Origin: a virus
Reading direction: 5' to 3' (one strand)
DNA: 64,000 nucleotides
UHGV virus genome: UHGV-0305822
In this document: positions 6,221-48,921 of the stretch, piece after piece
How positions within the stretch are numbered: position 1 is the stretch's first letter
Layout of the letters: every line of letters starts with the position of its first letter
Made by a program: the position numbers and the translations under genes
The notes under the pieces: generated by a model
The model's input: only the letters and a program-made list of their open reading frames with translations
What the model was told of the DNA's origin: nothing
The model's database searches: none

Positions 6221-6225
6221 CGTTT

Positions 6226-6268
6226 GGGAGAACCTTCGGGTTCTCCCTTTCTTTATTTTTTTCTTTTT
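6226..6268 (+). terminator. intrinsic terminator
   Basis: gggagaaccttcgggttctccc hairpin followed by a T-rich run. Confidence 0.65.
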
Positions 6269-6298
6269 ACACCACACTCCGTCTTTATGGAGGTGGGT

Positions 6299-8803
6299 AT
6301 GCTAAAAGTTGAACGCATTATACTCAAAGGTTTTACGGGGATGGGGTTACATGAAATTGAAACCTTCGATTTCACTATCCAGTCTCCAACAACAATTATC
6401 CTGGGTGGGAACGGCTGCGGGAAAACCAGTCTACTGTCTGTGTTCTTACCCTTAGCACCGGCTAAAACCGAATTTAGGGACGGCGGTTCTTACACAAACT
6501 ACTGTTTAGTTGGCGATCAACGCTATCGATTCAAAGTTGCCCGTAAAGGCAACTCTTTGGTTTGTGATATTGAGAACTTGACCACGGGGACAAAGATCGT
6601 CGAGCAAGGTAATGCGAAAGTCTACAACTCCCGTGTTGAAGAAATCACGGGTATTACGAAAGAGATTAAAGAACTATTAAATGGTGAGGTGTTGTTAACC
6701 GATGCGGGAACCGAATTACGCCGCAAATGGTTTTACCGTTTAAGTACCTCTGACCTCACTTACGCGTTAGGGTTTTATCAGCGTTTACGTAAAAACCTTA
6801 CTGCCTTAAATGGGGGTATTGAAATCACCAGCCGCAAGATCGCCGAATTACGGACGCGTGTTATTGAGAACGAGGAAGAACGGCAGCAGTTAGCGACGAG
6901 ATTAAAAGGTTTGGAATCGGATTTACGTGAACTGAACCGAGAAATCGAACAGTTGCCAGGATTAAATCGTGCCGTCACCATCGAAACAATCCAAGCGTTA
7001 TTAAACAGCTTGGGCCCAACCATCGACGCAATATTACAACATCGTGGTGGCCTGCCTACTGATGAACAGATACTGACCGCGCGACAAAACGAAGCTACGG
7101 CCCGCGAAGCTGTCGTGTCTACTGAAACAGAGGTATCGATGTTGAATAAAGACTTGTCGTTATTAATGGATGAGTCGACACGACAAGACTACCTGATGCG
7201 GAATCACGAAGGTCTCAAGAATACGCTGGCACGTTTACGTGAGTTACTTACCAAATGGGACACCGAACATCTCTTTCCGGGTCTATTTAACGACAACATC
7301 AATTTAGACCAACTTCGTGCGGCTACAGATGCGCGTGTTTGGGGGCAACGGTTGGGAACAACACTAGACGCAATTCATTCAACCGAAAAACTTAACGTTT
7401 TGGAAGAACGACTTCTGGTGATGGATCAAAAAACCGCAGGGATGCGGGATAGACTCCAGCGAGTGGAGAACGTTTTACAGAATTTAAATCACGAACGTAA
7501 TCACTACTTAGAAACAGCGGAAGTGGATTGCCCGCAGTGTCGGTTTAAGTTTCGGCCCGGTGTTACGCGTTCTTTACCTGAACTTGAGTCTTCGATTCGC
7601 GGACAACAACAGCAGCGCACGGAACTGCAAACACAGTTAGAGGCCCTATTACGCGATCGTGTTGAATTAGAATCTGATGTAACTTATATGCGGCAGGTTC
7701 GTGAGATTGTACTGACGTATTCAAAGGACCCGGTATTGAGCATGTTCTTTAAGCGTTTGCAAGAACGTAACGTTTTCACAGAATCACGCGAACAGTTCGG
7801 GAGTCTATGCGCAGCGTTTGACAGTGAGTTGTACTCTGCTATTGAGTACCATGAAACCCGACAACGGTTAGTGAAGGCGGAAAAAGAATGGCAGGATGCC
7901 GTAGCGGCCGTTGGTAACGTCGATGGTGCTTTACAACAGAAAATCGCCTTCCAACAGTCACGATTAGGTAAAGCCACAGAAATGCTCTCAATGCGTCGTA
8001 GAGAGCACGAACTGGCTAACACGACACTTACCTATCTGGTGAATGTTAAACGTGCTGTAGATGATTTCAGTGCGTTATTCGAACGGTTAGAGAGTGATGT
8101 TAAGGTTACGTTGACAAATACGGTCGTCGAGGAACTCTTACGTGCACGAGAAGGGAAGCTGGATGCTTTTACAACCGCACGCGAACGTTATCGTCAGATG
8201 GAAAATGAATTGAATCAGCTCAACAGTTTGGAACGCGAACTTGCTGACTTACAAGCCCAGCAGTTCAATAACAAACTGATGATTCAAGCCTTCTCGCCAG
8301 AAAAGGGTGTACTTAGAAAGTATTTTTACAACGCTATCGTTAGAATCACAGAGTTAATGACGCGTTATATCGAACAAGTCTGGACGTACCCCATGCGCGT
8401 TATGCCTTGTGACCTCACTGACGGCGATTTGGATTATACTTTTCCTGTCCAGCTAAAAACGCATCCTGAGCCTGTTCCTGACGTGCGTAAAGGGTCTAAG
8501 GCGCAGCGTGCGATATTTAATCTGATGTTCAGGCTGACCGCGTACAAAGCGCTGAAGTTGCATCAGTTTCCGTTGCTTTTGGATGAGCCTTCGGAAGGCA
8601 TGGATGAGGAGCACCGTAACAACCTGGTCGGCTTTATTAAAACGTTAGCAAACTCGGGAGAATTTTCTCAACTGTTGGTAGTCTCCCACGAAGCCGAGGT
8701 TCATTCTAAACTTAATGAAGCATCGTACTGTGTCATCGAACCGGAAGGGGTGACATTGCCTGCGGTGTATAACGAAGGAGTAAAAATTGTTTATGCAAAC
8801 TGA
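6299..8803 (+). CDS. SbcC/Rad50-like recombination ATPase (SMC-like)
   Basis: Walker A GGNGCGKTS at 6404..6430; long coiled-coil-like middle; CPQC zinc-hook-like motif at 7529..7540; Walker B LLLDEPSEGMD and VVSHEAE near C-terminus. Start moved to ATG 6299 (MLKVERI) after ggaggt, because the track start at 6224 sits inside the upstream terminator. Confidence 0.7.
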   Translation: MLKVERIILKGFTGMGLHEIETFDFTIQSPTTIILGGNGCGKTSLLSVFLPLAPAKTEFRDGGSYTNYCLVGDQRYRFKVARKGNSLVCDIENLTTGTKIVEQGNAKVYNSRVEEITGITKEIKELLNGEVLLTDAGTELRRKWFYRLSTSDLTYALGFYQRLRKNLTALNGGIEITSRKIAELRTRVIENEEERQQLATRLKGLESDLRELNREIEQLPGLNRAVTIETIQALLNSLGPTIDAILQHRGGLPTDEQILTARQNEATAREAVVSTETEVSMLNKDLSLLMDESTRQDYLMRNHEGLKNTLARLRELLTKWDTEHLFPGLFNDNINLDQLRAATDARVWGQRLGTTLDAIHSTEKLNVLEERLLVMDQKTAGMRDRLQRVENVLQNLNHERNHYLETAEVDCPQCRFKFRPGVTRSLPELESSIRGQQQQRTELQTQLEALLRDRVELESDVTYMRQVREIVLTYSKDPVLSMFFKRLQERNVFTESREQFGSLCAAFDSELYSAIEYHETRQRLVKAEKEWQDAVAAVGNVDGALQQKIAFQQSRLGKATEMLSMRRREHELANTTLTYLVNVKRAVDDFSALFERLESDVKVTLTNTVVEELLRAREGKLDAFTTARERYRQMENELNQLNSLERELADLQAQQFNNKLMIQAFSPEKGVLRKYFYNAIVRITELMTRYIEQVWTYPMRVMPCDLTDGDLDYTFPVQLKTHPEPVPDVRKGSKAQRAIFNLMFRLTAYKALKLHQFPLLLDEPSEGMDEEHRNNLVGFIKTLANSGEFSQLLVVSHEAEVHSKLNEASYCVIEPEGVTLPAVYNEGVKIVYAN

Positions 8804-8972
8804 TTGGTTCCGTCGTATTGTGGATGCGGCAGGGTTTGGCTTCATGTCCATTCTAGCGGTTCTTTATGTCATGTTTTGTGTGGTGATGATTTTATGGGTA
8901 GTTTCATCTTATCTGATTAAACTATCGTGGGGTTCAATTTGGCGTCAACGCGAATGCGAATGGCGGAATTAG
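8793..8972 (+). CDS. small membrane protein
   Basis: 59 aa, hydrophobic helix FGFMSILAVLYVMFCVVMILWVV; SD aaggag before ATG 8793. Confidence 0.45.
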   Translation: MQTDWFRRIVDAAGFGFMSILAVLYVMFCVVMILWVVSSYLIKLSWGSIWRQRECEWRN

Positions 8973-8982
8973 GAGAGGGAAT

Positions 8983-9081
8983 ATGGTTGTAGGGGTTCTG
9001 TTAACACTTGGCTCGTTGTGGTTAATTGGTAAAGGTTTAAACTGGCTGATTAAACGTCACCGTTGGGCGTTCGAAGATTAA
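8983..9081 (+). CDS. small membrane peptide (32 aa), putative
   Basis: SD aggagaggg then ATG; MVVGVLLTLGSLWLIGKGLNWLIKRHRWAFED; too short for the ORF track. Confidence 0.3.
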   Translation: MVVGVLLTLGSLWLIGKGLNWLIKRHRWAFED

Positions 9082-9138
9082 CCACCCAAATAATCCAGAA
9101 GATACCCTCCGGTGTGAGGGTATTGACAGGAGCAGAAA

Positions 9139-9267
9139 ATGACCACGATAAACGCTACGAATGTAGCGATATCCGCACTATACGACGCGGAACTTTCATG
9201 GGGTGGATTAATGATCACCACAGCCATATTAGCCGCTGCGGCTTTCGTCATCGCGCGTTGGTTTTAA
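9139..9267 (+). CDS. small membrane peptide (42 aa), putative
   Basis: SD caggagcag then ATG; C-terminal hydrophobic helix LMITTAILAAAAFVIARWF; preferred over the overlapping 9063..9317 track ORF. Confidence 0.3.
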   Translation: MTTINATNVAISALYDAELSWGGLMITTAILAAAAFVIARWF

Positions 9268-9298: not shown

Positions 9299-9742
9299 AT
9301 GGAAATTTATTTGTTGAACGCATCTTCTAAAGTCGGTGAACGACAAGCTGCCGATTTACTCAAACTACACTACCGTTACTTGGACCACCAGGCTACATTA
9401 CTGAAAATCAAAACGTCGGTGCCGAAGTTAAATGCGCGACAGCTGATCGAAGGTAACTGCATAGTTCTGGTGTATCAGGATGATGTCGCGGTAGGATACT
9501 GTAGTTATCGGAATCGTAACGGTTCACTTAAGATACGTTCGGTATACGTGCTCCCAGACTATCGTCAACGGGGTGTAATGAAAGAGATTTTCAAAGCAAT
9601 TGCAGCTGATGAAGTTTTCGGCGAGATTGTTACTGGCATGTATGCGAAATGTAAAGAAGCAAAAGAGTATTTCATCCGACGCGGCTATCAAGCGGTTTAC
9701 TCACACGATCGTGAGTGGGTCGATTTTAGCAAAACATTCTAA
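9299..9742 (+). CDS. GNAT-family N-acetyltransferase
   Basis: GNAT motif-A-like segment VYVLPDYRQRGVMKEIFKAI; typical size of about 147 aa. Confidence 0.55.
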   Translation: MEIYLLNASSKVGERQAADLLKLHYRYLDHQATLLKIKTSVPKLNARQLIEGNCIVLVYQDDVAVGYCSYRNRNGSLKIRSVYVLPDYRQRGVMKEIFKAIAADEVFGEIVTGMYAKCKEAKEYFIRRGYQAVYSHDREWVDFSKTF

Positions 9743-9808
9743 AAACAATAAAGCTCTCTTGGCGTACCTCACTATGAGTGTGAGAAATTTACGTCAGGAG
9801 AGCTAATT

Positions 9809-10054
9809 ATGTTAAAATCGTACGGAGTGGGTGGTTTGGATACGAGTATTTGTTGGAAAGAATACGAACGTGCGAAAGCGTTCTTACAGCATCCCAATGT
9901 GGGGACGATAGGTAAGGTCTGTTTCGGCAAACCTTCACTGACGGCTTGTATCCAAGGGGCTTTAGGGACGTTGCCACCCGAATCACATTTCGAGCCTGAG
10001 GAGAATATGAATGTTCACAGAGAACCCATCAATTTACGGCATACCGTTGAATGA
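9809..10054 (+). CDS. hypothetical protein
   Basis: 81-aa ORF; SD caggagagc. Confidence 0.45.
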   Translation: MLKSYGVGGLDTSICWKEYERAKAFLQHPNVGTIGKVCFGKPSLTACIQGALGTLPPESHFEPEENMNVHREPINLRHTVE

Positions 10055-10379
10055 AATTGATATTCTGCAAATTTGTTATCAATGTGGTGACTTCGGTAAG
10101 ACGCAGGTAACGCCGTTAGTTAAGCTTTTAGGTTACTTGCCTGAAATCGAGTTGCCTTTTGTTAAACCCAGTTTAGTTCGTCGCGCATCGTGTCGTGAAG
10201 CTTATTTGCTCTGGAAACACAATATTTCAGTAGAGAATGTCTGGGACCGTATGAACGATCATCAGTTCCGTGAGCAGGTCGTCCACACGCTTAACTTGTC
10301 ACTGACTATGCAGCGCCTGGGCTTACAACACGAAGGTTTAGAAGCGGCGGTCAAGCAATGGATTACGAAAAATCGATAA
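10011..10379 (+). CDS. hypothetical protein
   Basis: 122-aa ORF; SD gaggag; overlaps the 3' end of the previous ORF in another frame. Confidence 0.5.
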   Translation: MFTENPSIYGIPLNEIDILQICYQCGDFGKTQVTPLVKLLGYLPEIELPFVKPSLVRRASCREAYLLWKHNISVENVWDRMNDHQFREQVVHTLNLSLTMQRLGLQHEGLEAAVKQWITKNR

Positions 10380-10403
10380 TGGGTAAAACATATATCGCTA
10401 TAC

Positions 10404-10964
10404 TTGTCGAGCTATCAATCGGCGGTACACGTTTTAATACTACACATCAACTCCGGGCGTTTCGTTATGTTAACGGTACGTAAAGAATCTGAAATTGGTA
10501 ACGATCTTTTTAATGCGCCCGAAGACTATAAAGTCGTTACCATTAACTGCGTAGGAGCGATGGGTCGCGGTATTGCACTCGCGTGTCGTGAACGCTACCC
10601 CAACCTTTATCAGGATTATCGTAAGCGGTGTCGTGAAGACGAAATTAAGATTGGAAGCGTTTACGTTTACTCTGACGAAAAGTGTATCTTGCTCCCCACG
10701 AAAACACATTGGCGTTTAAAATCCCAGGTTTCTTATGTTACTGCGGGCATTACCGCATTAGCAGACTGTGTTGAGGATCTGGATACCAGCGTTGCTATCC
10801 CTCCGTTGGGAATGGCAAATGGGTGGTTAGATTCCTGGGAAAGACAAGAAATCTTTTTGTGGCTTTACAAAAAACTTGAACCGAGGAGGCAGCGCTACAC
10901 GTTATACTTACCTGATAAGCTGTACCAAGAAGCAGAGTCATTAATTCCAAACTCTTTTAAATAG
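10404..10964 (+). CDS. macro-domain-like protein (possible ADP-ribose binding or processing); start uncertain (TTG 10404 or ATG 10467)
   Basis: segment VVTINCVGAMGRGIALACRERYP resembles the macro-domain loop N-x(6)-GGGV-x(2)-AI; later VAIPPLGMANGW resembles the second macro Gly loop; by-eye comparison only. Confidence 0.35.
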   Translation: MSSYQSAVHVLILHINSGRFVMLTVRKESEIGNDLFNAPEDYKVVTINCVGAMGRGIALACRERYPNLYQDYRKRCREDEIKIGSVYVYSDEKCILLPTKTHWRLKSQVSYVTAGITALADCVEDLDTSVAIPPLGMANGWLDSWERQEIFLWLYKKLEPRRQRYTLYLPDKLYQEAESLIPNSFK

Positions 10965-27759: not shown

Positions 27760-28402
27760 AAAGGCGGAAGCCTACGCCTTACAAATCTTAAAGTTGGTAG
27801 ACCCTTCTGGCATTAATGCCGAAGCCGCGAAGAAAGCCTTCGCACGAATGACCGACGAACAGTTTAACCGACTTCGTAACGGTTTGCCTATTTACAACCC
27901 GGTGGGAAGTAAAGTCGAAATTGACCACCTGCGCAATATCGAGGTGTGCAAAATTCTCGGGGTAAACCTGGAGCAACGACTCTGGTTAACAGAACCAAAA
28001 ACGGGTGTTTATCACCGTACTCGTTACCCTCACTTAGTCTTACGCTTGCCTGTCCGTCGTCAGACACAGATGCAAGAAAAGAAAATGGCGGTTGCGAAAA
28101 ACGACAAAGTTCGCGATAAGCTCTCCGGTCAAGTCGTCGGACCTTCCAAAGCATCCGGGGTGTCCTTCCCAGAGGCATACATCATGTACTCCGATGGTCA
28201 CGACTGGACACTGAAAGAGTTCTTGTGGGCGCGTGGTGGTAACGACGCACTACAACGTGCTTTCTATCAATCGCTGCGCCAAACCGGTAAAGGGCGTATT
28301 GATTTGCCTGGAGCGGAGCGAACAAGTTCTAAAGCAACGCGTACGTGGTCGGCGTACCTAAAAGCGATGCATATCGGTAACAACATAGGCCATCCGTCAT
28401 GA
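27734..28402 (+). CDS. hypothetical protein
   Basis: 222-aa ORF overlapping the upstream gene by 26 nt. Confidence 0.5.
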   Translation: MKLEPARRKKAEAYALQILKLVDPSGINAEAAKKAFARMTDEQFNRLRNGLPIYNPVGSKVEIDHLRNIEVCKILGVNLEQRLWLTEPKTGVYHRTRYPHLVLRLPVRRQTQMQEKKMAVAKNDKVRDKLSGQVVGPSKASGVSFPEAYIMYSDGHDWTLKEFLWARGGNDALQRAFYQSLRQTGKGRIDLPGAERTSSKATRTWSAYLKAMHIGNNIGHPS

Positions 28403-29121
28403 GATTATCTCGGCGTTTCTTAATCGATATTGATACGTTATTTGATACGCGTTTAGGTTGGGTAAAAGCCGTTAAGCCTGAAAGCTTAGCATTGCTAGAC
28501 TACGATGTTTATCGTCGTCGCTATACAGAAGCTTGGGCTGGCGTACTTGGATTTGAAAAATGGGATGAAGAGTGGCGGAAGCGGGATAAGCGCGCGTTGA
28601 TTAATGCGCAACCTACTGAATTATTGGCAACAATGAAAAACGAATTCGAGTGTATGTTGCTTGAAATCGAAATGCATTCGCCAATTGAAAAACCCACCCT
28701 GACCATCAATACGTGGCCTTATACGGATTTAACAGGCGAAGAACTTCAAGCCTTTTTGAATCTGTTTCGGATGTACTACAATAACGTACAAGTTGAATTG
28801 GTGTCTTGGTCGTTAGAAGATCTCACACCGGGGAGATTGTCGTTGGCGTGGGATTGCTGGATAATGTACGATTGGTTCGAGTGGATTAAGCTTAACGCTA
28901 CGCACTTGAAAAAACCAATTCCGAGCTTTACCATCACACACCCTGCCATGCTCACACCAGAACTGACCGGAGTGTTGGTTGAACAAATCAAACAAGACGG
29001 CGTTAACCCGTTTAAGGAACATATCCGGTTTATGGCAGAGTGGGTCGGTGTCGACCCACGAGATGCCGCTTTATTTAGTCTTGCTCGCCCTGCTCAGGAC
29101 GTGCAAACGCCGCCGTCATAA
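28399..29121 (+). CDS. hypothetical protein
   Basis: 240-aa ORF, ATGA overlap with upstream stop. Confidence 0.55.
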   Translation: MRLSRRFLIDIDTLFDTRLGWVKAVKPESLALLDYDVYRRRYTEAWAGVLGFEKWDEEWRKRDKRALINAQPTELLATMKNEFECMLLEIEMHSPIEKPTLTINTWPYTDLTGEELQAFLNLFRMYYNNVQVELVSWSLEDLTPGRLSLAWDCWIMYDWFEWIKLNATHLKKPIPSFTITHPAMLTPELTGVLVEQIKQDGVNPFKEHIRFMAEWVGVDPRDAALFSLARPAQDVQTPPS

Positions 29122-29539
29122 TGGACTTAACATCGATTTGTTCACCTACTGGTGCCAGCTCCCCTTCTGTTACTTCAACATCAGGAATAACAGGAACGGG
29201 GGGCTGGTAGCCCTGGGTTTCTTCGATTTCCTCATCGTGACGACGTATTTTGATATTACCACGTTGCATGAGGATGCTATTAAGTGCATTCGCCAAATCT
29301 TGGTTAGCTTCGCTGTTTTTCTGTGCAGCAGCGACGCGACGTTTGGAAATGATTTGTTTATCGACGTCGTTAAGCAAAGACCCCAGCCGGTCTACCGTTT
29401 TCAAGTCTTTGTGTGCTTGAGGATCGTCTAAGATGAGATTCACAATCCGTACACGGGCTTGTTGCGTTTGGCGGAGAAGCGATTCTTCGTCGTCCACATC
29501 TCCATCAAACGCCTGATATTTCACTTCTTCGTCAGCCAT
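29075..29539 (-). CDS. hypothetical acidic protein
   Basis: 154-aa minus ORF with SD gaggtag; 3' end overlaps the convergent plus gene by 47 nt. Confidence 0.5.
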   Translation of the reverse strand: MADEEVKYQAFDGDVDDEESLLRQTQQARVRIVNLILDDPQAHKDLKTVDRLGSLLNDVDKQIISKRRVAAAQKNSEANQDLANALNSILMQRGNIKIRRHDEEIEETQGYQPPVPVIPDVEVTEGELAPVGEQIDVKSIMTAAFARPEQGEQD

Positions 29540-41796: not shown

Positions 41797-44700
41797 TTAC
41801 GCTGATTTACGACTAACGTCGAGTTGCGGCACGGGTTGAGTTATTGACACGTTACGTGACGCCGAACCCGGAGCGGTTGACGCCGGGTTAGCCGGACCGT
41901 TTTGCATAGCCTGTGGCCGCTGACGAAGAATTGTTACAATCTCTTTCAGATAGCCTGCAGACTCTTTTGCAACCGCCAGCTGTTGTACACTGATCGGATC
42001 ACCACTGTTCACTGTGGAACCGGTCTGAGCATCGGAAGTCACCGTTGGTGCAGGACGGGCCGATTTCTCCATCTGCTGTCTAGCACCCTCTTTTACTTTA
42101 GCAACCTCTTCTTCGGCCAGGCCGTCAGCACGTGCATTTTGACCCACCGTCTCTACAACAACTGACGCATCACTCGGCGTGACATCGCCACCAGGACTCG
42201 GCACAGCCGGACCACCACCCGTTGCAGCTTTAATATCTTCAGCACCCATCGCGCCTTTGTCTGCTAAAGCGGAGTCACGATTCGCTTCGTTCGCGGCTGG
42301 CAGGTTATCTGCCGGGCCTGTGATAGACGGATCGTTAGCAGCGCCTGCAGCGATAGCCGGGGAAGACGGCATTGGCGTTACGCCTGTCGTCAAGTCTTTC
42401 AGCGATGCCTGGTTAGCCGCGATCGCGTTTGTTCCTACGGCACCAATCTTACCACCCATGATGTTGAGCACTTCATCCAAACTACGCAATTTTCCATTCT
42501 TGTAGAAAATTGTGCTGTTTGCCGCGATTTGATCGGCCGACGCACCACGCGACGATGGGCCGTTCGGATCACGCTTCCATTCTTGCAGGAATTTCTTACC
42601 GCCACCTTGTCCTAAGAAGTGGTAGAGGTAAACAGCTGCACCTGGAGGATCGATACCACCTAAATCCTTTCTGGCTTTCTCGATATTATCACGAATATGA
42701 CGGACGCCAAGCAGAGCATTCGCCCACGGGTCATACTGGTTAGTTTGCGGGATACCATAACGTCTCGCATAAGCTTTCATCTGCGCACCCCAGGTATCGT
42801 TGATGAACTGGAACAAGCCAGCCGCAGAACTTCCTTTAGCTTTGATACCGTATCTAAGCCCAGATTCTGCTTGTGCCATTCCCAGTGCTAACGCTGGAGG
42901 AACACCCATCATCTTCGCTACGTCTGTAATCAGTGCTGCAACCGCATTCAAGTTAGGCTTCAATCCGTCACCCAACGTTGAAATTGGATACTTAGCCGCT
43001 AACGTTTTATAGTCACCGTCTTGCATATCGCCAAGTTTCACGCCGAAGTTACCGGTAGTAAATGCAGCGTAATTCTTAGCTCCCATCTGACCGTAAGCAC
43101 CGGCCAAATCGTTTGGTGTGCCGTAATTCCCACCGTCGTTTGCCGCTGGTTGCAATAGGTCACGATAAGAGGAGGAGGTGTTCATCTGTGGTCGAGACGG
43201 TTGCTCCTTCTCATCGTCGGTCAAGAACATCTGAGTCGCGCGATCTTTTCGCTGCCAGTTCACACGGAAACCCGCAGAAGGCGTAGCACGCAGCGTTTTA
43301 CGTACTGCCAAATCAGCTTCCTTAGACAGTTCTTTCAGGTTCTCTAACTCCGTTGCAACTGAACCGGCGTCGGTGTTAGCGTCTCCCCCTAACGGGTTAA
43401 ACGGTACCTCCCACACTGACTGACGAATACCCCCTTTCAGGTTGTATGCACCACGCATCATCAGTGCGATTTCATACAAGAACCCACCCGTAACGCGTAG
43501 GTCCATCGGATCGGCAGCAGGGACATAACGTTTCACCCCAACCACGTACGTCATGAAGACAGGTAAGAAGCGGTTATAGAACCAGTTCTTGTACCGATCT
43601 TCTTTTGGCCCACCAATGGCGTCAGGCGCAATCACCGCAATCGCACGTTTCCAGTCGCCTTTATACGTACAGCTTTTCACATCGGTGTCTTGCAACACTT
43701 GACGTTCCAAGAGCGTATATAGGTTACGGGTTGTTTGAGTAATGCTCACCGCACCATAAGCTTTCAACCTTACGGACTCCAAATCACGGAGATCGGTTTC
43801 TTTAGGTAAACTTCTCCAGTCGACTTGAACCTGAACTTGTTCGGTGCCGTCTTCCCAACCTTCAACTTTCGCAACTTCTTTGTTGCGTTCCGCATCCGCT
43901 TGAGCCAACGCTTGGGTCGATTCTGCCACAGAAGCAACTTTGTGTCCTTCGGCCACACCGCCTGTAGCATTTACATCCTTACGTTTTTCATCACGACGCA
44001 TGTTAATCGAACGAAGCACGCGTTCTTGCGCTTCAACGACTTCTTCGCCTGACAAAAACTCGGCCGGGGTAAACGTTACGAAATCCCACGCTTTAGAGAA
44101 CCAACCTTGGTTAACCTTGCGGGGATCTTCTAATGCACGGAATGCAGGCGCATCTTTCGACATCTTCATTTTGTTGAAGATATTCAACATGTCTGCCTTC
44201 GACACTTTCGCAGGATTACCGACATCTGCTAACGCGATATCATTATCCATGGATTTCAGTGCTGTAATCCAACGTAAATAGATCGGCACAAAACGTTGTA
44301 GCATAAACGCACTAAACGCCAGCATTTCGCCTTTGTCTTCTACGTTAGTACCAAACCCTTCGGCCAGTTTCTTCACGTCGTCACCGGACAAACCACGCAA
44401 CTGTGCTTGACCATTCTCTGTATAAGAGATATACGGTTTCAAGTTGTCTTCTAAATAACGTGCTTTTGCGCCATCATCGGAAGACCATTCGTCGTGATCT
44501 CTAAATCCGTACTGTGCCAATCGCATGTTATCCAGATACTGGGCATTCACACGGGTTGCAGTTTTATACGCAAACCAAGACAACGCAGCGCCTGCAGCAA
44601 CCAAACCGATAATCGGCCAGCCAACCGCAGTTACCACTGCAGATGCTGCCGTCGCGACAGCACTCACCGCAGGAACAGCCAAACGGGTCACAGCAAACTT

Positions 44701-47700
44701 ACCAACGTTCCACAACGCTTTACCTGCAAACCCAACCGGCTTAAAGATTCCCCATTTTGCGACTTTACCTAAGATTGAACCCACTGTGCCTAAAATACTC
44801 ACAATCGGCCCTACCAACGGCAGTCCTTTAAGGAAATCCATTACCCCACGTTTACCGCCTTTCTTCTCAGCCTCTTTCTTAGCCTTTTCCTCTTCCTTAG
44901 AGCGACGACGGCGTCGGAAGAACTGGAAGTAATCGCGTTTTTCATCACTGGCAGGTGGCTTGTTACGTTGACCGAACTTACTGAACATGGTTCTTAACAA
45001 ACCATCCGAAGCACCTGCTTTTTCCGCAGAATCACGCATGGTATTAAACCACGACATTTCCTGAAGATTAACCATTCGGTTCAGGCGTTCCAGTAAAGCC
45101 GACCCAACGCTACGGGCTTTCTGTTTCCCTTTATTAATCACACGTCCAGCGCTATCCGTTACGGTGTCTAAGTCTTCTTTTGCCGCATCGATGATACGTG
45201 TTTTAGACACCTTGCCTCTTGCGTAGATGTGTTGACGATAAAACTCAGCAACGTCGTCATCGCGTCCTGCTAAACGACTCTCCATTCGATAACGTGTTCC
45301 AATGTCGTAACGCGGATCACGGAAGGTATCGACCATATCGCTTGCACGACCACGGAAACGGTCAAACCAATCACGTGCTGCACCACCCCAACGAGAAAGA
45401 CGACCACCTACCGCACTACGGTAACGGGACATTCTGTCACGCATCCGACCACGCCAATCCCGGAACCCTTGAAAATGTTCACGGAATCCTTCGCGTATGT
45501 CCTTAGCACGTTGGAATAATCCTTTAACTGAACTGGCCCCCGTATTCCGCTCCATCTGTTCTGTCCAGGTGTCATCTTCAGGTTCACCTGGCAATCTCCG
45601 GTTAAGGAGTTTGTAGATACGGATTAGGATGTGGTTAGTTTTACGGCCATTCGACCACGAGAACACACTAAACCCACCACCAGAGCCCCCTTCCTTACGG
45701 TTCTGCCACCAACGTGTCAACGGATTATCAGAAGCCAACTCTTTGAGCTTCTCAAACCCACGTTTTGCATTGTTCCACAGACGAGCTGGCATTCCCGTTA
45801 CACGGGAAATCATGCTTTGTAAACGGGTTTTCTCTGCGCCCTCTGGAACCTCATTTAACCACTCGCGTGCTTTCTCGAACAACGAAGCCGCTTTAGGCGA
45901 AATGAAACCCAGAAGTTTCTTCGGTAAAGTCACAGCTTTGTTTACCGCCGTTCCTGCCTTCCCAGAAATGTACTGGAAAAGCGCTTGAACTTTACCGCCT
46001 TTGTAGAAACGCAGTTTACCTGCGGCAGCCAAATCAGCAGCAGCTAAGATTAAATTACCCGCCTCGTCGACGATGTCACGTCCCAGTTTAATATCGTCGA
46101 GAGTTTTAAGTTGAATCAGCTTCTCAGTTTTCGGGTCAGCCTGGTAATATTCCCCAGCTTCTAAACGACTTCCTTGTAATACGACGTTACCACGTTCATC
46201 GTAGATGTCGCGAACACCTAAAACGCCTTTACCGAAAGCTACAGCAGAATTCCAACCGGTCGATAATGTACCGGTTACTAACCCTTTCAGTCGGCTAAAT
46301 ACGCCGGGACCTTCGGAGGAACCGCCTGAGAATTTCCCACGAATAAAACCACCTAATGCTTGTAGGCGATCTTTCCCACGTAGGAACAGATTCTTACCAA
46401 ACCGTCCTACACCTGAACCGGTATCCCAAAGCACCCCAGCCCAGCGACGTAACAAACCTGTCTCGCCTAGTACAATACGTTTGCGCTTACGACGACGTTT
46501 ACGACCCGATTCACTCGAACTTTCAGGTTCGTCACCGTCATCACGGCTACCGCCTAAACTGGCCAGAAGAATACCTTCCTCATCCATGTTCTTAACGTGT
46601 TTGAGGATATCTTGCACTGTGCTAGATTCAGGCTGTTTACGTACCGCATCAATCAAACGATCGAATTGCTGCTCCAGTCCAGCGTTCGTATCTGGACGGC
46701 TGCTTAAGAGCTCAACAAAGTTGGTGGATTTCTCTCCATAAAGTACAGCAGCGAGTTGACGGGCGCTTAAACCGCGACCGCGACCACCTTTTCCACCACC
46801 ACGTACGTTAGACAGTTCTTTGTCTTCAAAGCTCGGCTCTGCACCTGCACCCATCCGACGCAAGTAATCACCCAACGCAGAACCATTTTGCAGCTTACGT
46901 TGAATCTCTTGCTCACGGGTTAACGAACGACCAGAGCGGGTCTTACCCATCGACAGGTCGTTAAATAGCGTATAGGGATCGTTAATGTCCTTATCGACTT
47001 CGAAAATGTCGTTCTTCGCATCGTATTTAAAAATGCCGGAGTCGCGAAGTGCGTTCTCGCCGTAAATCACAGACGCAGCATCAACCGTGTCTTGACGTGC
47101 ACGAATCGTTGACTGGATAGCGGCGATTTTGTTTGAAATCGCGTTGCTCAGTTCATGGTGACCGCCAACCAGTTCCGCAGAACGGGCTTCTAAAACACCC
47201 TGAATCGCTTCCACAGCGTTTGCGTTCATGTACCGATACATGTGCATCGGGTCTTTCAATAAAGACCCTACATCGAACGCTTTCCCTTCTGAGGCACGAG
47301 ACTCGATGTAGTCCGCTAACGCTTGACGTGTTTTCCTATCGAGCGTTTTATCTTTATCGATAAAGTCGACAGTGTCGTTGATGTACGTCTGTAAACGTTT
47401 GCGCTGATCGTCATTAGCAACGGCCTTACGTACACGATTACCAATGACTTTACGATCCACCATACCGCGCGTGGTCAGGTCATAAACCTGATCGTGGTGT
47501 TCGCCATACCCACGACGAATAGATTTGTTAATCTCGGACAGTAACGTCGGAATAACTTCGGTGATACTAAGGTAAGCTTTACGATCGAATTTCGCCGCGG
47601 CAGAAAGAGATTCCGCAGAACGATCGTCTAATGCTAAGGTTTCGCGACGTAGCGGGTTAACTAGCCCCAATTCGTGCATTAGTCGAAACAGATCAGCTAA

Positions 47701-48921
47701 CGGACCGCTTGTTTCTCCCGCTATTGCCGAGTTAGAAATAGACGACAGATTTCCAAAGCCATACTTCGCCAACTGTAGGCGTTTCATGACTTCTGGGTTT
47801 TTCTCTAACTCGCCACGGGTCCAGTTCTGAAGACGTTCGATCTGTGGTTGTAAGAGACGTTTTGCTAACCAACCACCTGCAAAACCTGCCGCTTTATTAC
47901 GCGAGTTTGTGTTACGACGGTCAGGAGACAACGATGAGCTGTCCGACATGTCAAAGTCATCTTCCTGAGCCATCCCTAGAACTTGTTCTAGAATCCCACG
48001 ACCATCACTAAAGATGTTCGAGATTTTCTTCTTCGCGTTTTCGCGAATCTGACCAATGAAATTGTCTGCGTAGTGTAAGGGGTTCATCCACTCCGCAGCT
48101 TTACGTTTTACATTAGCCCAACGAATTTCAGAAAACTCTTCCTTCGCGTAGTCCGGTAGTGCTGTGTTCTTAACGATGGCTTCTAATGCCGGGGTGTTGC
48201 GTGCAAACTCGTCTTGTTTGAGTTTCGCAATATCCTGCAAAGCGAACAATGTCCGATATTGCAGCTCTAACTGCTTACGCTGAACATTCAACAACACGCC
48301 ACGACTTAAGCTAGTCGTTAAGTTGACGTCTTTCGCAATACCGATTACGGTCTGGAACAGCGCGTCGGACTTCATGTCCTTAATCGTGTCGCGCAAGCGG
48401 TCTTCAACCATCCCCTCTTGCATCTCACGTTGCTGGTCCGCTGTTTGCGGTGCACCTGAGAACACGCTGTCCAGCTCACGATCCATCATCGCCTGTTTAG
48501 GATCGTAATTCCCATAGTCGATTTGATCGTTACGTGCCCACTTGTCGATTTTCCGTGTTACGGATTCCGGTAAATACCGTTTCAGTGTTGGGCCTAACTG
48601 TCTCGCTTGCATCTTAACGACGCGAGACGTCTTTTCAATCTCGTCTTTCGTATGGGCCAGAATGTCTTGACCTGCGGCTTTAACGTTTTGATAGCCTTCG
48701 TAGGCTTCTGCCGCAGGTTTAGGCATCCCTTTTAAAATAACCTGATCACGTTTGTTTTCGGGCCAGATAGTCGACAACGCCGACTTACGGGCAGCACGAA
48801 ATGTGTCCATGACCGGGTTACGCGATTGGTCTTGTTGACGAGGGGGCTCATCAAAATCGTCCCAGTCGTCCATGTTATCAAGATCGATTTCATCGAAATC
48901 ATCTTTACCTTTTTTAGCCAT
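41797..48921 (-). CDS. giant virion-type protein (2374 aa) with C-terminal-region SLT lytic transglycosylase domain
   Basis: SLT motifs ...LGMAQAESGLRYG...AAGLFQFINDTWG... encoded at about 42560..42930; internal hydrophobic cluster; poly-basic tracts (SGRKRRRKRKR, FRRRRRSKEEEKAKKEAEKKGGKRG); size and domain order as I recall for phiKZ gp181-type proteins. Confidence 0.8.
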   Translation of the reverse strand: MAKKGKDDFDEIDLDNMDDWDDFDEPPRQQDQSRNPVMDTFRAARKSALSTIWPENKRDQVILKGMPKPAAEAYEGYQNVKAAGQDILAHTKDEIEKTSRVVKMQARQLGPTLKRYLPESVTRKIDKWARNDQIDYGNYDPKQAMMDRELDSVFSGAPQTADQQREMQEGMVEDRLRDTIKDMKSDALFQTVIGIAKDVNLTTSLSRGVLLNVQRKQLELQYRTLFALQDIAKLKQDEFARNTPALEAIVKNTALPDYAKEEFSEIRWANVKRKAAEWMNPLHYADNFIGQIRENAKKKISNIFSDGRGILEQVLGMAQEDDFDMSDSSSLSPDRRNTNSRNKAAGFAGGWLAKRLLQPQIERLQNWTRGELEKNPEVMKRLQLAKYGFGNLSSISNSAIAGETSGPLADLFRLMHELGLVNPLRRETLALDDRSAESLSAAAKFDRKAYLSITEVIPTLLSEINKSIRRGYGEHHDQVYDLTTRGMVDRKVIGNRVRKAVANDDQRKRLQTYINDTVDFIDKDKTLDRKTRQALADYIESRASEGKAFDVGSLLKDPMHMYRYMNANAVEAIQGVLEARSAELVGGHHELSNAISNKIAAIQSTIRARQDTVDAASVIYGENALRDSGIFKYDAKNDIFEVDKDINDPYTLFNDLSMGKTRSGRSLTREQEIQRKLQNGSALGDYLRRMGAGAEPSFEDKELSNVRGGGKGGRGRGLSARQLAAVLYGEKSTNFVELLSSRPDTNAGLEQQFDRLIDAVRKQPESSTVQDILKHVKNMDEEGILLASLGGSRDDGDEPESSSESGRKRRRKRKRIVLGETGLLRRWAGVLWDTGSGVGRFGKNLFLRGKDRLQALGGFIRGKFSGGSSEGPGVFSRLKGLVTGTLSTGWNSAVAFGKGVLGVRDIYDERGNVVLQGSRLEAGEYYQADPKTEKLIQLKTLDDIKLGRDIVDEAGNLILAAADLAAAGKLRFYKGGKVQALFQYISGKAGTAVNKAVTLPKKLLGFISPKAASLFEKAREWLNEVPEGAEKTRLQSMISRVTGMPARLWNNAKRGFEKLKELASDNPLTRWWQNRKEGGSGGGFSVFSWSNGRKTNHILIRIYKLLNRRLPGEPEDDTWTEQMERNTGASSVKGLFQRAKDIREGFREHFQGFRDWRGRMRDRMSRYRSAVGGRLSRWGGAARDWFDRFRGRASDMVDTFRDPRYDIGTRYRMESRLAGRDDDVAEFYRQHIYARGKVSKTRIIDAAKEDLDTVTDSAGRVINKGKQKARSVGSALLERLNRMVNLQEMSWFNTMRDSAEKAGASDGLLRTMFSKFGQRNKPPASDEKRDYFQFFRRRRRSKEEEKAKKEAEKKGGKRGVMDFLKGLPLVGPIVSILGTVGSILGKVAKWGIFKPVGFAGKALWNVGKFAVTRLAVPAVSAVATAASAVVTAVGWPIIGLVAAGAALSWFAYKTATRVNAQYLDNMRLAQYGFRDHDEWSSDDGAKARYLEDNLKPYISYTENGQAQLRGLSGDDVKKLAEGFGTNVEDKGEMLAFSAFMLQRFVPIYLRWITALKSMDNDIALADVGNPAKVSKADMLNIFNKMKMSKDAPAFRALEDPRKVNQGWFSKAWDFVTFTPAEFLSGEEVVEAQERVLRSINMRRDEKRKDVNATGGVAEGHKVASVAESTQALAQADAERNKEVAKVEGWEDGTEQVQVQVDWRSLPKETDLRDLESVRLKAYGAVSITQTTRNLYTLLERQVLQDTDVKSCTYKGDWKRAIAVIAPDAIGGPKEDRYKNWFYNRFLPVFMTYVVGVKRYVPAADPMDLRVTGGFLYEIALMMRGAYNLKGGIRQSVWEVPFNPLGGDANTDAGSVATELENLKELSKEADLAVRKTLRATPSAGFRVNWQRKDRATQMFLTDDEKEQPSRPQMNTSSSYRDLLQPAANDGGNYGTPNDLAGAYGQMGAKNYAAFTTGNFGVKLGDMQDGDYKTLAAKYPISTLGDGLKPNLNAVAALITDVAKMMGVPPALALGMAQAESGLRYGIKAKGSSAAGLFQFINDTWGAQMKAYARRYGIPQTNQYDPWANALLGVRHIRDNIEKARKDLGGIDPPGAAVYLYHFLGQGGGKKFLQEWKRDPNGPSSRGASADQIAANSTIFYKNGKLRSLDEVLNIMGGKIGAVGTNAIAANQASLKDLTTGVTPMPSSPAIAAGAANDPSITGPADNLPAANEANRDSALADKGAMGAEDIKAATGGGPAVPSPGGDVTPSDASVVVETVGQNARADGLAEEEVAKVKEGARQQMEKSARPAPTVTSDAQTGSTVNSGDPISVQQLAVAKESAGYLKEIVTILRQRPQAMQNGPANPASTAPGSASRNVSITQPVPQLDVSRKSA

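Follow-up and report, generated by a model that had tools for sequence, protein, structure and literature searches.

The 64,000-nucleotide stretch of the virus genome UHGV-0305822 analyzed here (the window) carries, at 10467..10964, a gene that very probably encodes an AdfM (anti-DarT factor macro), that is, a stand-alone copy of the DarG2 macrodomain that counters DarTG2. The AdfM family, represented by PhiKZ gp104, PhiPA3 gp108, Goslar gp83, and Asesino gp217, shields nucleus-forming jumbo phages against DarTG2 (Morgan et al., Cell Rep 2026, PMC13309987). Family membership, fold, conservation of the catalytic residues, positional orthology, and independence from a nearby GNAT acetyltransferase gene were all observed here. 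Because the protein is 62% identical to Asesino gp217 (YP_009290835.1; E 2e-73) and is encoded at the same locus, directly upstream of an SLT transglycosylase gene and downstream of SbcC, we regard the window open reading frame (ORF) as a new, divergent member of a known anti-defense family; its identity to PhiKZ-type gp104 is 38–39%. A sequence-only reading of the same stretch had drawn attention to two ORFs, one at 9299..9742 with a GNAT motif and one at 10404..10964 with macro-domain-like glycine loops. Both are present with the motifs quoted for them, and Pfam, PHROG, NCBIfam, and PADLOC profiles, an AlphaFold2 (AF2) model, and Foldseek agree that the second is a macro domain. The accompanying guess that this protein reverses DarT-made ADP-ribosylation of DNA also appears to be right, the protein being of the DarG type and its orthologs shown by experiment to act against DarTG2 (PMC13309987); since the ortholog Asesino gp217 belongs to AdfM, the family had already been described.

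A DarG2-type macrodomain without its antitoxin context

When the macro ORF was searched against the PDB with phmmer, the top matches were 5M3I (E 9.4e-26) and 5M31/5M3E (1.2e-20), i.e., DarG antitoxin macrodomains from M. tuberculosis and T. aquaticus (PMC5179494), followed by 7OMU (1.9e-11), a Thermosipho DarT-DarG fusion according to its Foldseek description. The ORF belongs to PHROG 335 (E 5e-36), and it matches the NCBIfam antitoxin_DarG model at E 2e-36 (125.9 bits, against a curated full-length cut-off of 250 bits) over profile positions 7–155 of 338 only and the PADLOC DarG model at E 2.1e-37 over positions 7–152 of 329 only. The AF2 model (pLDDT 93.4, pTM 0.89) consists of a single macro domain. 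Foldseek ranks 1–4 are all DarG (TM 0.75–0.86), with three stand-alone DarG macrodomains at TMt 0.84–0.86 and a root-mean-square deviation of ~2 Å, and DarG comes before TARG1, SCO6735, and the alphavirus nsP3 macrodomains. The protein is therefore, by phmmer and Foldseek alike, nearest to bacterial DarG2 macrodomains and not to other macro classes, and with its 165 residues it falls into the class of stand-alone macrodomains (~150–170 residues) that have no DarT-binding domain. It is not a full DarG antitoxin, since the C-terminal DarT-interacting domain (~340 residues in total) is missing and only the N-terminal half of the profiles is matched; nor is it a DarG with a cognate darT, as neither of the two ORFs that precede it (9809..10054 and 10011..10379) gives a DarT, Pfam, or PADLOC match. 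An O-acetyl-ADP-ribose deacetylase of the MacroD/YmdB type or an Appr-1''-p phosphatase found no support in models or structures: the NCBIfam search at E<=0.1 for MacroD/YmdB-type models matches DarG only, and the Appr-1''-pase structures 6LFQ–6LFU are weak PDB matches (E 0.02–0.06).

The ATG at 10467 (165 residues) is the most likely start of the gene, ahead of the TTG at 10404: homologs are called at 161–166 residues, several relatives have a stop codon with no other start codon between it and the equivalent ATG, and PhiKZ gp104 and the DarG macrodomains begin there. The TTG is not preceded by a Shine-Dalgarno sequence; tblastn similarity to Seoulvirus nevertheless reaches into 10404..10466.

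Numbered from 10467, the key residues are N27, R34, T78, K79 (codon 10701..10703), H81, W82, and the loop P112-P-L-G-M-A-N-G119. N27 aligns with the catalytic Asn (N23 in PhiKZ, N22 in Taq) and K79 with the catalytic Lys (K78 in PhiKZ, K80 in Taq), and equivalents of TaqDarG N22, T79, K80, H82, W83, G117, N120, and G121 are kept. In TaqDarG, N22, K80 (catalytic), H82, W83, and the loop 117–121 are known to matter, and the Trp has been proposed to stack on thymine (Jankevicius et al., PMC5179494). TaqDarG K29 is replaced by R, and G119 by A, the latter being the same change as in the enzymatically active PhiKZ AdfM. Across 24 diverse homologs, N27, T78, K79, G115, G119, and the glycine loops are invariant. 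The active site is of the DarG/TARG1 type and not of the MacroD type.

What such a protein does has been worked out for PhiKZ: in vitro, gp104 takes off the ADP-ribose that DarT2 places on the second T of TNTC in DNA, its N23A mutant is impaired, and gp104 expressed alone fully rescues DarT2 toxicity in E. coli; PhiKZ without AdfM is restricted by DarTG2 at the stage of DNA replication and packaging, and the AdfM proteins of PhiKZ, PhiPA3, and Asesino are localized to the phage nucleus (PMC13309987). DarTG2 is known in E. coli from the literature. From these characterized homologs we infer the enzymatic activity of the window protein, DarTG2 as its target, and its nuclear localization. During infection, the host DarT2 of DarTG2 would ADP-ribosylate thymidine in single-stranded phage DNA (at TNTC motifs), a modification that would block phage DNA replication and packaging. 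The macro pocket (N27 and the loops G30–G35 and G115–G119) would bind the ADP-ribose, and the catalytic Lys79 (compare DarG K80 and TARG1 K84) would cut the ADP-ribose-thymine bond to give back normal DNA. As in the relatives, the protein is likely to be imported into the phage nucleus.

The wider family suggests where such genes came from. About half of the detectable homologs in IMG/VR are full-length DarG proteins of ~350 residues, and a Pfam DarT gene lies directly upstream of the long DarG homologs on viral contigs in 6/6 tested cases. Because the long homologs are full DarG proteins with DarT upstream, the data fit an “orphan antitoxin” origin of AdfM, parallel to that of the NADAR-type AdfN against DarTG1. 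A different arrangement is seen in Erwinia phage pEa_SNUABM_48 (our locus L115, 3004–4293), in which a DarG-like macrodomain forms the N-terminal part of a 429-residue protein; this size is close to that of the 422-position phrog_335 profile, and the protein is neither a stand-alone AdfM nor a DarT-linked DarG.

Some observations weigh against the AdfM assignment. The Pfam Macro score is barely over the threshold (25.5 bits, cut-off 22, E 1.4e-5), the DarG-specific models being far stronger. TaqDarG Q34 and N8 are not conserved (A and D, respectively, in the window protein), although PhiKZ AdfM deviates at these positions too. Finally, chimallin and PicA lie outside the window, and nucleus formation by this phage is a prediction from synteny and taxonomy: chimallin (Asesino gp039) falls outside the Asesino region that is syntenic with the window, and the large window ORFs tested against Pfam for chimallin gave no match, none being expected there by synteny.

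Table 1. Features of the locus around the macro gene (window coordinates)
Feature	Position	Strand	Evidence or remark
SbcC/SMC-like ATPase	6224..8803	+	PHROG 77, E 8e-92; found in all relatives; anchors the syntenic block on its upstream side
Tiny hydrophobic ORFs (61, 32, and 42 residues; e.g., MVVGVLLTLGSLWLIGKGLNWLIKRHRWAFED)	8787..9267	+	Between SbcC and GNAT
GNAT acetyltransferase, 147 residues, PHROG 3810	9299..9742	+	Pfam, PHROG, AF2 fold
Conserved RNA stem-loop in the 66-nt spacer between GNAT and EF-Tu-like ORF	9752..9805	+	Minimum free energy, shuffles, 6 relatives
Small ORF resembling the EF-Tu N terminus, 81 residues, PHROG 28329/12626	9809..10054	+	NCBIfam, blastp, family profile
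122-residue ORF, PHROG 11720	10011..10379	+	E 1.6e-29; ortholog of SPN3US gp072 and Asesino gp214
Stretch that a TTG start would add to the N terminus of the macro protein, probably untranslated	10404..10466	+	No Shine-Dalgarno sequence
AdfM-type orphan DarG2-like macrodomain, 165 residues, predicted ADP-ribosyl-thymidine DNA glycohydrolase	10467..10964	+	Sequence, fold, orthology
SLT-domain transglycosylase, 241 residues	11038..11763	+	Pfam SLT, E 8.8e-15; directly 3' of adfM in all relatives

Other readings of the macro gene

The sequence-only reading had proposed that the GNAT and the macro protein act as a host-takeover or anti-defense pair, and we considered a functional pair in this broad sense, e.g., an acetyl/ADP-ribose cycle involving O-acetyl-ADP-ribose or a single anti-defense or host-takeover pathway. 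The genes do belong to one tightly packed, co-oriented block on the plus strand (SbcC, tiny ORFs, GNAT, the 81- and 122-residue ORFs, macro, SLT; Table 1) that is kept in Seoulvirus, Erskinevirus, Machinavirus, and the window lineage, and an AdfM-type gene is likewise preceded by a GNAT in a second deep clade (Moabite-, Siat-, and Maaswegvirus). In that clade the order is RNA polymerase (RNAP) beta, helicase, GNAT, zero or one gene, and macro (our loci L002, Moabite; L110, KpLz-2_45; and L111, FBKp24), with the GNAT gene overlapping the macro gene in Moabite, lying 0.5 kb upstream of it in FBKp24, and standing one gene apart from it in KpLz-2_45. This GNAT is genuine by Pfam, the flanking genes are unlike those in the window clade, and the EF-Tu-like ORF was not seen in Moabite, KpLz-2_45, or FBKp24. 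The GNATs of the two clades are, however, unrelated by sequence: a hidden Markov model (HMM) of the window-clade family finds nothing at E<=10, the hhalign probability is 0.7%, and neither BLASTP, HMM, hhalign, nor PHROG (another PHROG or none) supports the Moabite GNAT as a diverged ortholog of the one in the window.

Other evidence speaks against a pair more directly. PhiKZ AdfM on its own removes ADP-ribose and fully rescues DarT2 toxicity (PMC13309987), and there is no GNAT beside PhiKZ gp104. Within the window clade, the order SbcC, GNAT, EF-Tu-like ORF, variable genes, macro, SLT is found at 14 loci, whereas three Derbicus-type loci retain SbcC, macro, SLT, and orf11760 but lack the GNAT, in whose place stand four ORFs without Pfam matches. 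Even where both genes are present, 2–4 genes of differing content separate them; SPN3US gp073 and gp071, for instance, have no counterpart in the window. We also took two Pfam censuses of the ORFs lying up to ~3 kb from a stand-alone macro gene, together covering 27 more independent lineages and 190 ORFs. The first drew 103 ORFs from 15 IMG/VR lineages; the second drew 87 ORFs from 12 phages, isolates or uncultured, among them PhiKZ, Noxifer, Special G, Atu_ph07, SU10, and two megaphages. GNATs are missing from the full family list of the second census and from the 25 families given for the first. With ~29 lineages in all, a GNAT nearby in two of them is close to the chance expectation (a rough Poisson P of ~0.07–0.5, which varies with the neighborhood size and GNAT background assumed). 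The active site, moreover, is of the DarG/TARG1 type, and no model of an O-acetyl-ADP-ribose deacetylase (MacroD/YmdB) matches at E<=0.1. With AdfM working alone in PhiKZ, the GNAT missing from Derbicus-type loci, variable genes in between, and no enrichment in the 27 lineages, the proposal of a GNAT-macro functional unit is not supported, and we consider it highly improbable. The GNAT, 0.7 kb upstream, is a separate gene that is not needed for AdfM activity. The two may still reside loosely together in an accessory, possibly counter-defense, region, given the unrelated GNAT that precedes the macro gene in the second clade.

The families that do recur among macro neighbors in the censuses are NADAR, YAcAr-SLOG (3 ORFs), NAPRTase, and a nucleoside deoxyribosyltransferase-like domain. 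Because macro genes tend to adjoin such nicotinamide adenine dinucleotide (NAD)/ADP-ribose enzymes and not GNATs, the surroundings look like counter-ADP-ribosylation islands. In two independent phage lineages, a gene for a NADAR domain, the AdfN-like hydrolase class that acts against DarT1, lies within ~2–3 kb of a stand-alone DarG-like macro gene, which suggests islands countering both DarT types. One case is Agrobacterium phage Atu_ph07 (our locus L117, 734–1270 and 3016–3453), where the NADAR assignment rests on the COG3236 note in the record, COG3236 being equivalent to NADAR; the other is an unlocated locus among L023–L085, and this NADAR neighbor from the first census was not found among the 9 immediate-neighbor ORFs tested.

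Least probable of all is that the macro protein acts elsewhere, on Appr-1''-phosphate from RNA repair, on soluble NAD-derived immune signals, or on ADP-ribosylated protein or RNA: relatives carry (pre-2026) database names such as “Appr-1-p processing protein” or “phosphatase,” jumbo-phage Macro domains were predicted by comparative genomics to degrade soluble ADP-ribose derivatives (PMC7824862), and TARG1, the next fold match after DarG, takes ADP-ribose off proteins, but DarG comes first by a wide margin in every sequence, profile, and fold search, both the catalytic Lys and the putative thymine-stacking Trp are retained, the orthologs act on T-ADP-ribosylated DNA and counter DarTG2 (PMC13309987), and no KptA/Tpt1 or RNA-ligase context is seen beside the gene by Pfam or PHROG. 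The idea of an action on Thoeris or NAD-derived signals, raised along with the DarT guess, is likewise unsupported, given an active site of the DarG/TARG1 and not the MacroD type.

The GNAT, the EF-Tu-like ORF, and the hairpin between them

The upstream ORF is a GNAT, as had been proposed, by three Pfam families over their cut-offs (Acetyltransf_1 at 33.1 bits, cut-off 20.7, E 7.5e-8, as well as Acetyltransf_7 and Acetyltransf_10), by PHROG 3810 (“acetyltransferase,” E 1e-25), and by its AF2 model, which has the GNAT fold (pLDDT 92.6) and places it in the superfamily. Motif A reads R89-Q-R-G92-V-M94 (G92 codon 9572..9574). In all Seoulvirus orthologs the motif-A Gly is replaced by Lys (R-R-R-K-x-M), with R89 and M94 invariant, and acetyl-CoA binding could be altered or lost in those proteins. 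The family is limited to the SPN3US-like clade (50 phage records) and is under purifying selection, with a ratio of nonsynonymous to synonymous substitution rates (dN/dS) of 0.02–0.05; selection is strong on all four ORFs from GNAT through macro (dN/dS 0.02–0.11 against relatives). Beyond the superfamily, the matches are generic: PDB and Foldseek hits (TM <=0.75) include a Listeria putative acetyltransferase, PaiA, HP0935, Naa50, Ard1, the RimI-like CBU0801 (Coxiella), and YjcF, and the named NCBIfam families score far under their cut-offs (ArsN2 28.7 vs. 125; rimI 17.4 vs. 86.4). The latter score, set against the TIGR01575 equivalog cut-off, speaks against the protein being RimI itself. A GNAT toxin (TacT/AtaT/KacT) was also discarded, none being present among 59 PDB profile matches at E<=1 and PADLOC giving no match, as was a GNAT toxin-antitoxin pair, the partner ORF being downstream and EF-Tu-like and not an upstream ribbon-helix-helix gene.

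The two small ORFs between the GNAT and the macro gene, which the sequence-only reading had left unassigned, are real genes with good Shine-Dalgarno sequences, PHROG families, and dN/dS of 0.05–0.11, and one of them is EF-Tu-like. The other, 10011..10379, is 41–43% identical to SPN3US gp072 and Asesino gp214 (dN/dS 0.05), and Pfam, NCBIfam, and PADLOC profile searches with it all returned no match. The EF-Tu-like ORF, 9809..10054, begins 66 nt 3' of the GNAT behind an AGGAG Shine-Dalgarno sequence and contains a stretch, KEYERAKAFLQHPNVGTIGKVCFGKPSLTACI, homologous to EF-Tu residues ~4–36, which span strand beta1, the P-loop (degenerate here), and the beginning of helix A; a 30-residue segment of E. 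coli EF-Tu was set beside it. NCBIfam EF-Tu models match the ORF at E 3e-4, pairwise blastp against the EF-Tu N terminus reaches E 2.5e-7 with the window ORF and values as low as 8e-10 with its orthologs, and a profile of the small-ORF family retrieves ~59 EF-Tu sequences in the PDB (E 3.5e-7 to 1e-4), with eIF2-gamma next at 0.019. The core H-x-N-V-G-T-I-G-x-V is invariant in the family; because the P-loop lysine/threonine is not kept, GTP binding is unlikely. Among 5,426 E. coli genomes the ORF has no DNA similarity, the sole match being a related jumbo phage deposited as a plasmid, which speaks against a recent capture of the host tuf gene; since there is no DNA similarity to E. coli tuf and dN/dS is about 0.10, the EF-Tu-like stretch is an old, selected feature. 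Outside the clade, IMG/VR gives only weak matches, mostly at contig ends and presumed to be host tuf fragments. Orthologs have been named “putative elongation factor Tu” by BYU annotators, and PGAP omits the gene in NZ_CP173450.1.

The spacer between the GNAT and the EF-Tu-like ORF is constant in length (66–70 nt) and folds into a hairpin with a minimum free energy of −30.4 kcal/mol (z −6.3; 0/200 shuffles as stable). The AGGAG that serves ORF 9809 as its Shine-Dalgarno sequence falls within the 3' arm of the outer stem. Six relatives keep the hairpin and show compensatory changes in it, and the window has a single occurrence of its sequence pattern; it should be noted that it ranks only ~32nd in stability among ~12,800 80-nt windows, so that stability does not make it unique. 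The most stable 80-nt fold of the whole stretch (−40.7 kcal/mol) is a long, near-perfect hairpin at 29141..29220 (+), among the overlapping ORFs 28399..29539. For the spacer hairpin, Rfam and terminator searches came back empty, which gives no sign of a known RNA family or a classic terminator. The GNAT and the EF-Tu-like ORF share a reading frame in the window, but they are not one gene joined by readthrough or bypass either, two in-frame TAA codons lying between them and the same frame not being kept in SPN3US.

A tentative explanation for this arrangement is that the GNAT is a protein acetyltransferase acting on the host translation apparatus, with the EF-Tu-like protein as substrate, adaptor, decoy, or regulator and the hairpin gating the production of the latter. 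The EF-Tu-like ORF lies directly 3' of the GNAT in all 14 clade loci, both are missing in Derbicus-type phages, and their distributions match (48 and 50 phage records, respectively, in the same genera), with a spacer of constant length whose conserved hairpin covers the Shine-Dalgarno sequence. The best profile and fold matches of the GNAT include the N-terminal/protein acetyltransferases Naa50, Ard1, HP0935, and the RimI-like CBU0801; bacterial RimI acetylates the EF-Tu N terminus (PMC9079301), and Iyer et al. (PMC7824862) proposed that jumbo-phage GNATs of the ribosomal-protein type hijack translation. On the other hand, the co-variation comes from a single clade and amounts to essentially one gain/loss event, and because all the evidence is from that clade, plain synteny also explains the co-occurrence. 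The GNAT matches are generic and the rimI score falls far short, the conserved EF-Tu-like part is the buried beta1/P-loop (itself degenerate) and not the acetylated N terminus, and the motif-A glycine is Lys in the Seoulvirus orthologs.

Comparable in likelihood, and thus also doubtful, is a small-molecule acetyltransferase, with a polyamine, antibiotic, or metabolite as substrate and no relation to either neighbor. PDB matches include PaiA and the SSAT polyamine acetyltransferases, ArsN2 and aminoglycoside-acetyltransferase models match weakly, and the same phage clade encodes functional spermidine acetyltransferases: those of Caitlin and phiEaH2 work, while the SPN3US candidate is inactive (Li et al., PMC9992855). 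These characterized proteins are, however, products of different genes ~100 genes away (in Caitlin, YP_009292176 was tested and the GNAT ortholog is YP_009292274; in SPN3US, YP_009153389 and YP_009153485, respectively), which excludes the window GNAT as the counterpart of either the working or the inactive spermidine enzymes, and every named-family score of the GNAT is well short of its cut-off.

Taken together, the GNAT, hairpin, and EF-Tu-like ORF might, with low probability, form an undescribed module for host-translation takeover or counter-defense, and the cassette has, as far as our searches could tell, not been discussed in the literature. Were this so, an acetyltransferase and a mimic of the EF-Tu beta1/P-loop would modify or decoy EF-Tu, or an EF-Tu-dependent defense or toxin, independently of AdfM though from within the same accessory region.

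The host phage and comparison with known systems

Judged from its proteins and gene order, the host phage is an SPN3US/Asesino-like jumbo phage of Enterobacteriaceae (Chimalliviridae) from an undescribed lineage. Near-identical DNA is absent among 50,697 phage records, and the closest phages by protein are SPN3US-like jumbo phages, namely Seoulvirus, Erskinevirus (phiEaH2, Asesino), and Machinavirus (ChrisDB, Caitlin), to which the macro protein is 56–62% and the GNAT only 34–40% identical. The gene order of the window is that of Asesino gp207–gp238. Chimalliviridae includes Seoulvirus by classification, and nucleus formation has been shown experimentally for Asesino. Elsewhere, the window holds split multisubunit RNAP beta genes, a UvsX-like recombinase, a thymidylate synthase, and a 2,374-residue tail-fiber-like protein (41797..48921, minus strand) with a second SLT-type domain at residues ~1992–2246. 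A sigma-70 promoter search in the locus gave nothing above chance. In ChrisDB, SPN3US, Asesino, and Caitlin, comparable small genes are annotated where the window has the hydrophobic ORFs at 8787..9267.

Near-identical proteins are found on 220–226 kb contigs from metagenomes and Salmonella enterica assemblies. A related jumbo phage has been filed as a circular 221,873-bp plasmid, p98232-contig_4 (NZ_CP173450.1), of the urinary E. coli isolate 98232, with its adfM gene labeled “hypothetical protein,” and Salmonella enterica-labeled contigs of 79–226 kb (P0008/P0009) also hold relatives of the window phage. Jumbo phages of this kind have thus been co-sequenced with, or are carried by, clinical isolates.

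With this macro gene, the newly defined AdfM family gains a divergent enterobacterial member, from an E. coli/Salmonella-associated jumbo phage. If its identity is as we propose, the window phage is predicted to resist DarTG2, which bears on host-range prediction and on the choice of therapeutic phages. The labels “Appr-1-p processing protein,” “phosphatase,” and “hypothetical protein” on these genes are outdated. The remaining novelty at the locus is the small, well-defined, and unexplained GNAT/hairpin/EF-Tu-like cassette.

Among known GNATs, the window protein shares its fold with RimI/Nat-type N-terminal acetyltransferases, for which the acetylation of EF-Tu by RimI sets a precedent of acetylating the translation machinery, but has no family-level match to them. 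It also shares the fold of phage Rac, a LUZ19-type GNAT that acetylates the RNAP alpha subunit, a likeness drawn by description only. The spermidine N-acetyltransferases of Caitlin and phiEaH2 (PMC9992855) are GNATs from the same clade, encoded by different genes at a distant locus.

The closest relatives of the macro protein are the AdfM proteins, with which it has in common a size of ~160 residues, a stand-alone DarG2-type macrodomain with the catalytic Asn/Lys kept, and a setting in a chimallivirus-type jumbo phage; the loop variant PPLG-x-ANG is common to it and the active PhiKZ protein, although the identity to that biochemically tested protein is only ~38%. With DarG2 itself (TaqDarG and MtbDarG; 5M31, 5M3E, 5M3I) it shares macrodomain subfamily, fold, catalytic lysine, and the predicted reaction, hydrolysis of ADP-ribosyl-thymidine in single-stranded DNA; unlike DarG2, it has neither a C-terminal DarT-binding domain nor an adjacent darT and would serve counter-defense in a lytic phage rather than act as an antitoxin. 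TARG1/C6orf130 (4J5S) belongs to the same macrodomain class and has its catalytic lysine at the equivalent position, but it removes ADP-ribose from protein glutamates, is only ~20% identical in sequence, and has Ala in place of the proposed thymine-stacking Trp of DarG and the window protein. The nearest functional parallel is AdfN, the orphan DarG1-like NADAR protein of T4-like phages (PMC11825919): it, too, is an orphan antitoxin hydrolase domain that erases DarT-made ADP-ribosylation of DNA, but it has the NADAR fold, acts on the guanosine adducts of DarT1, and does not counter DarTG2 (PMC11825919).

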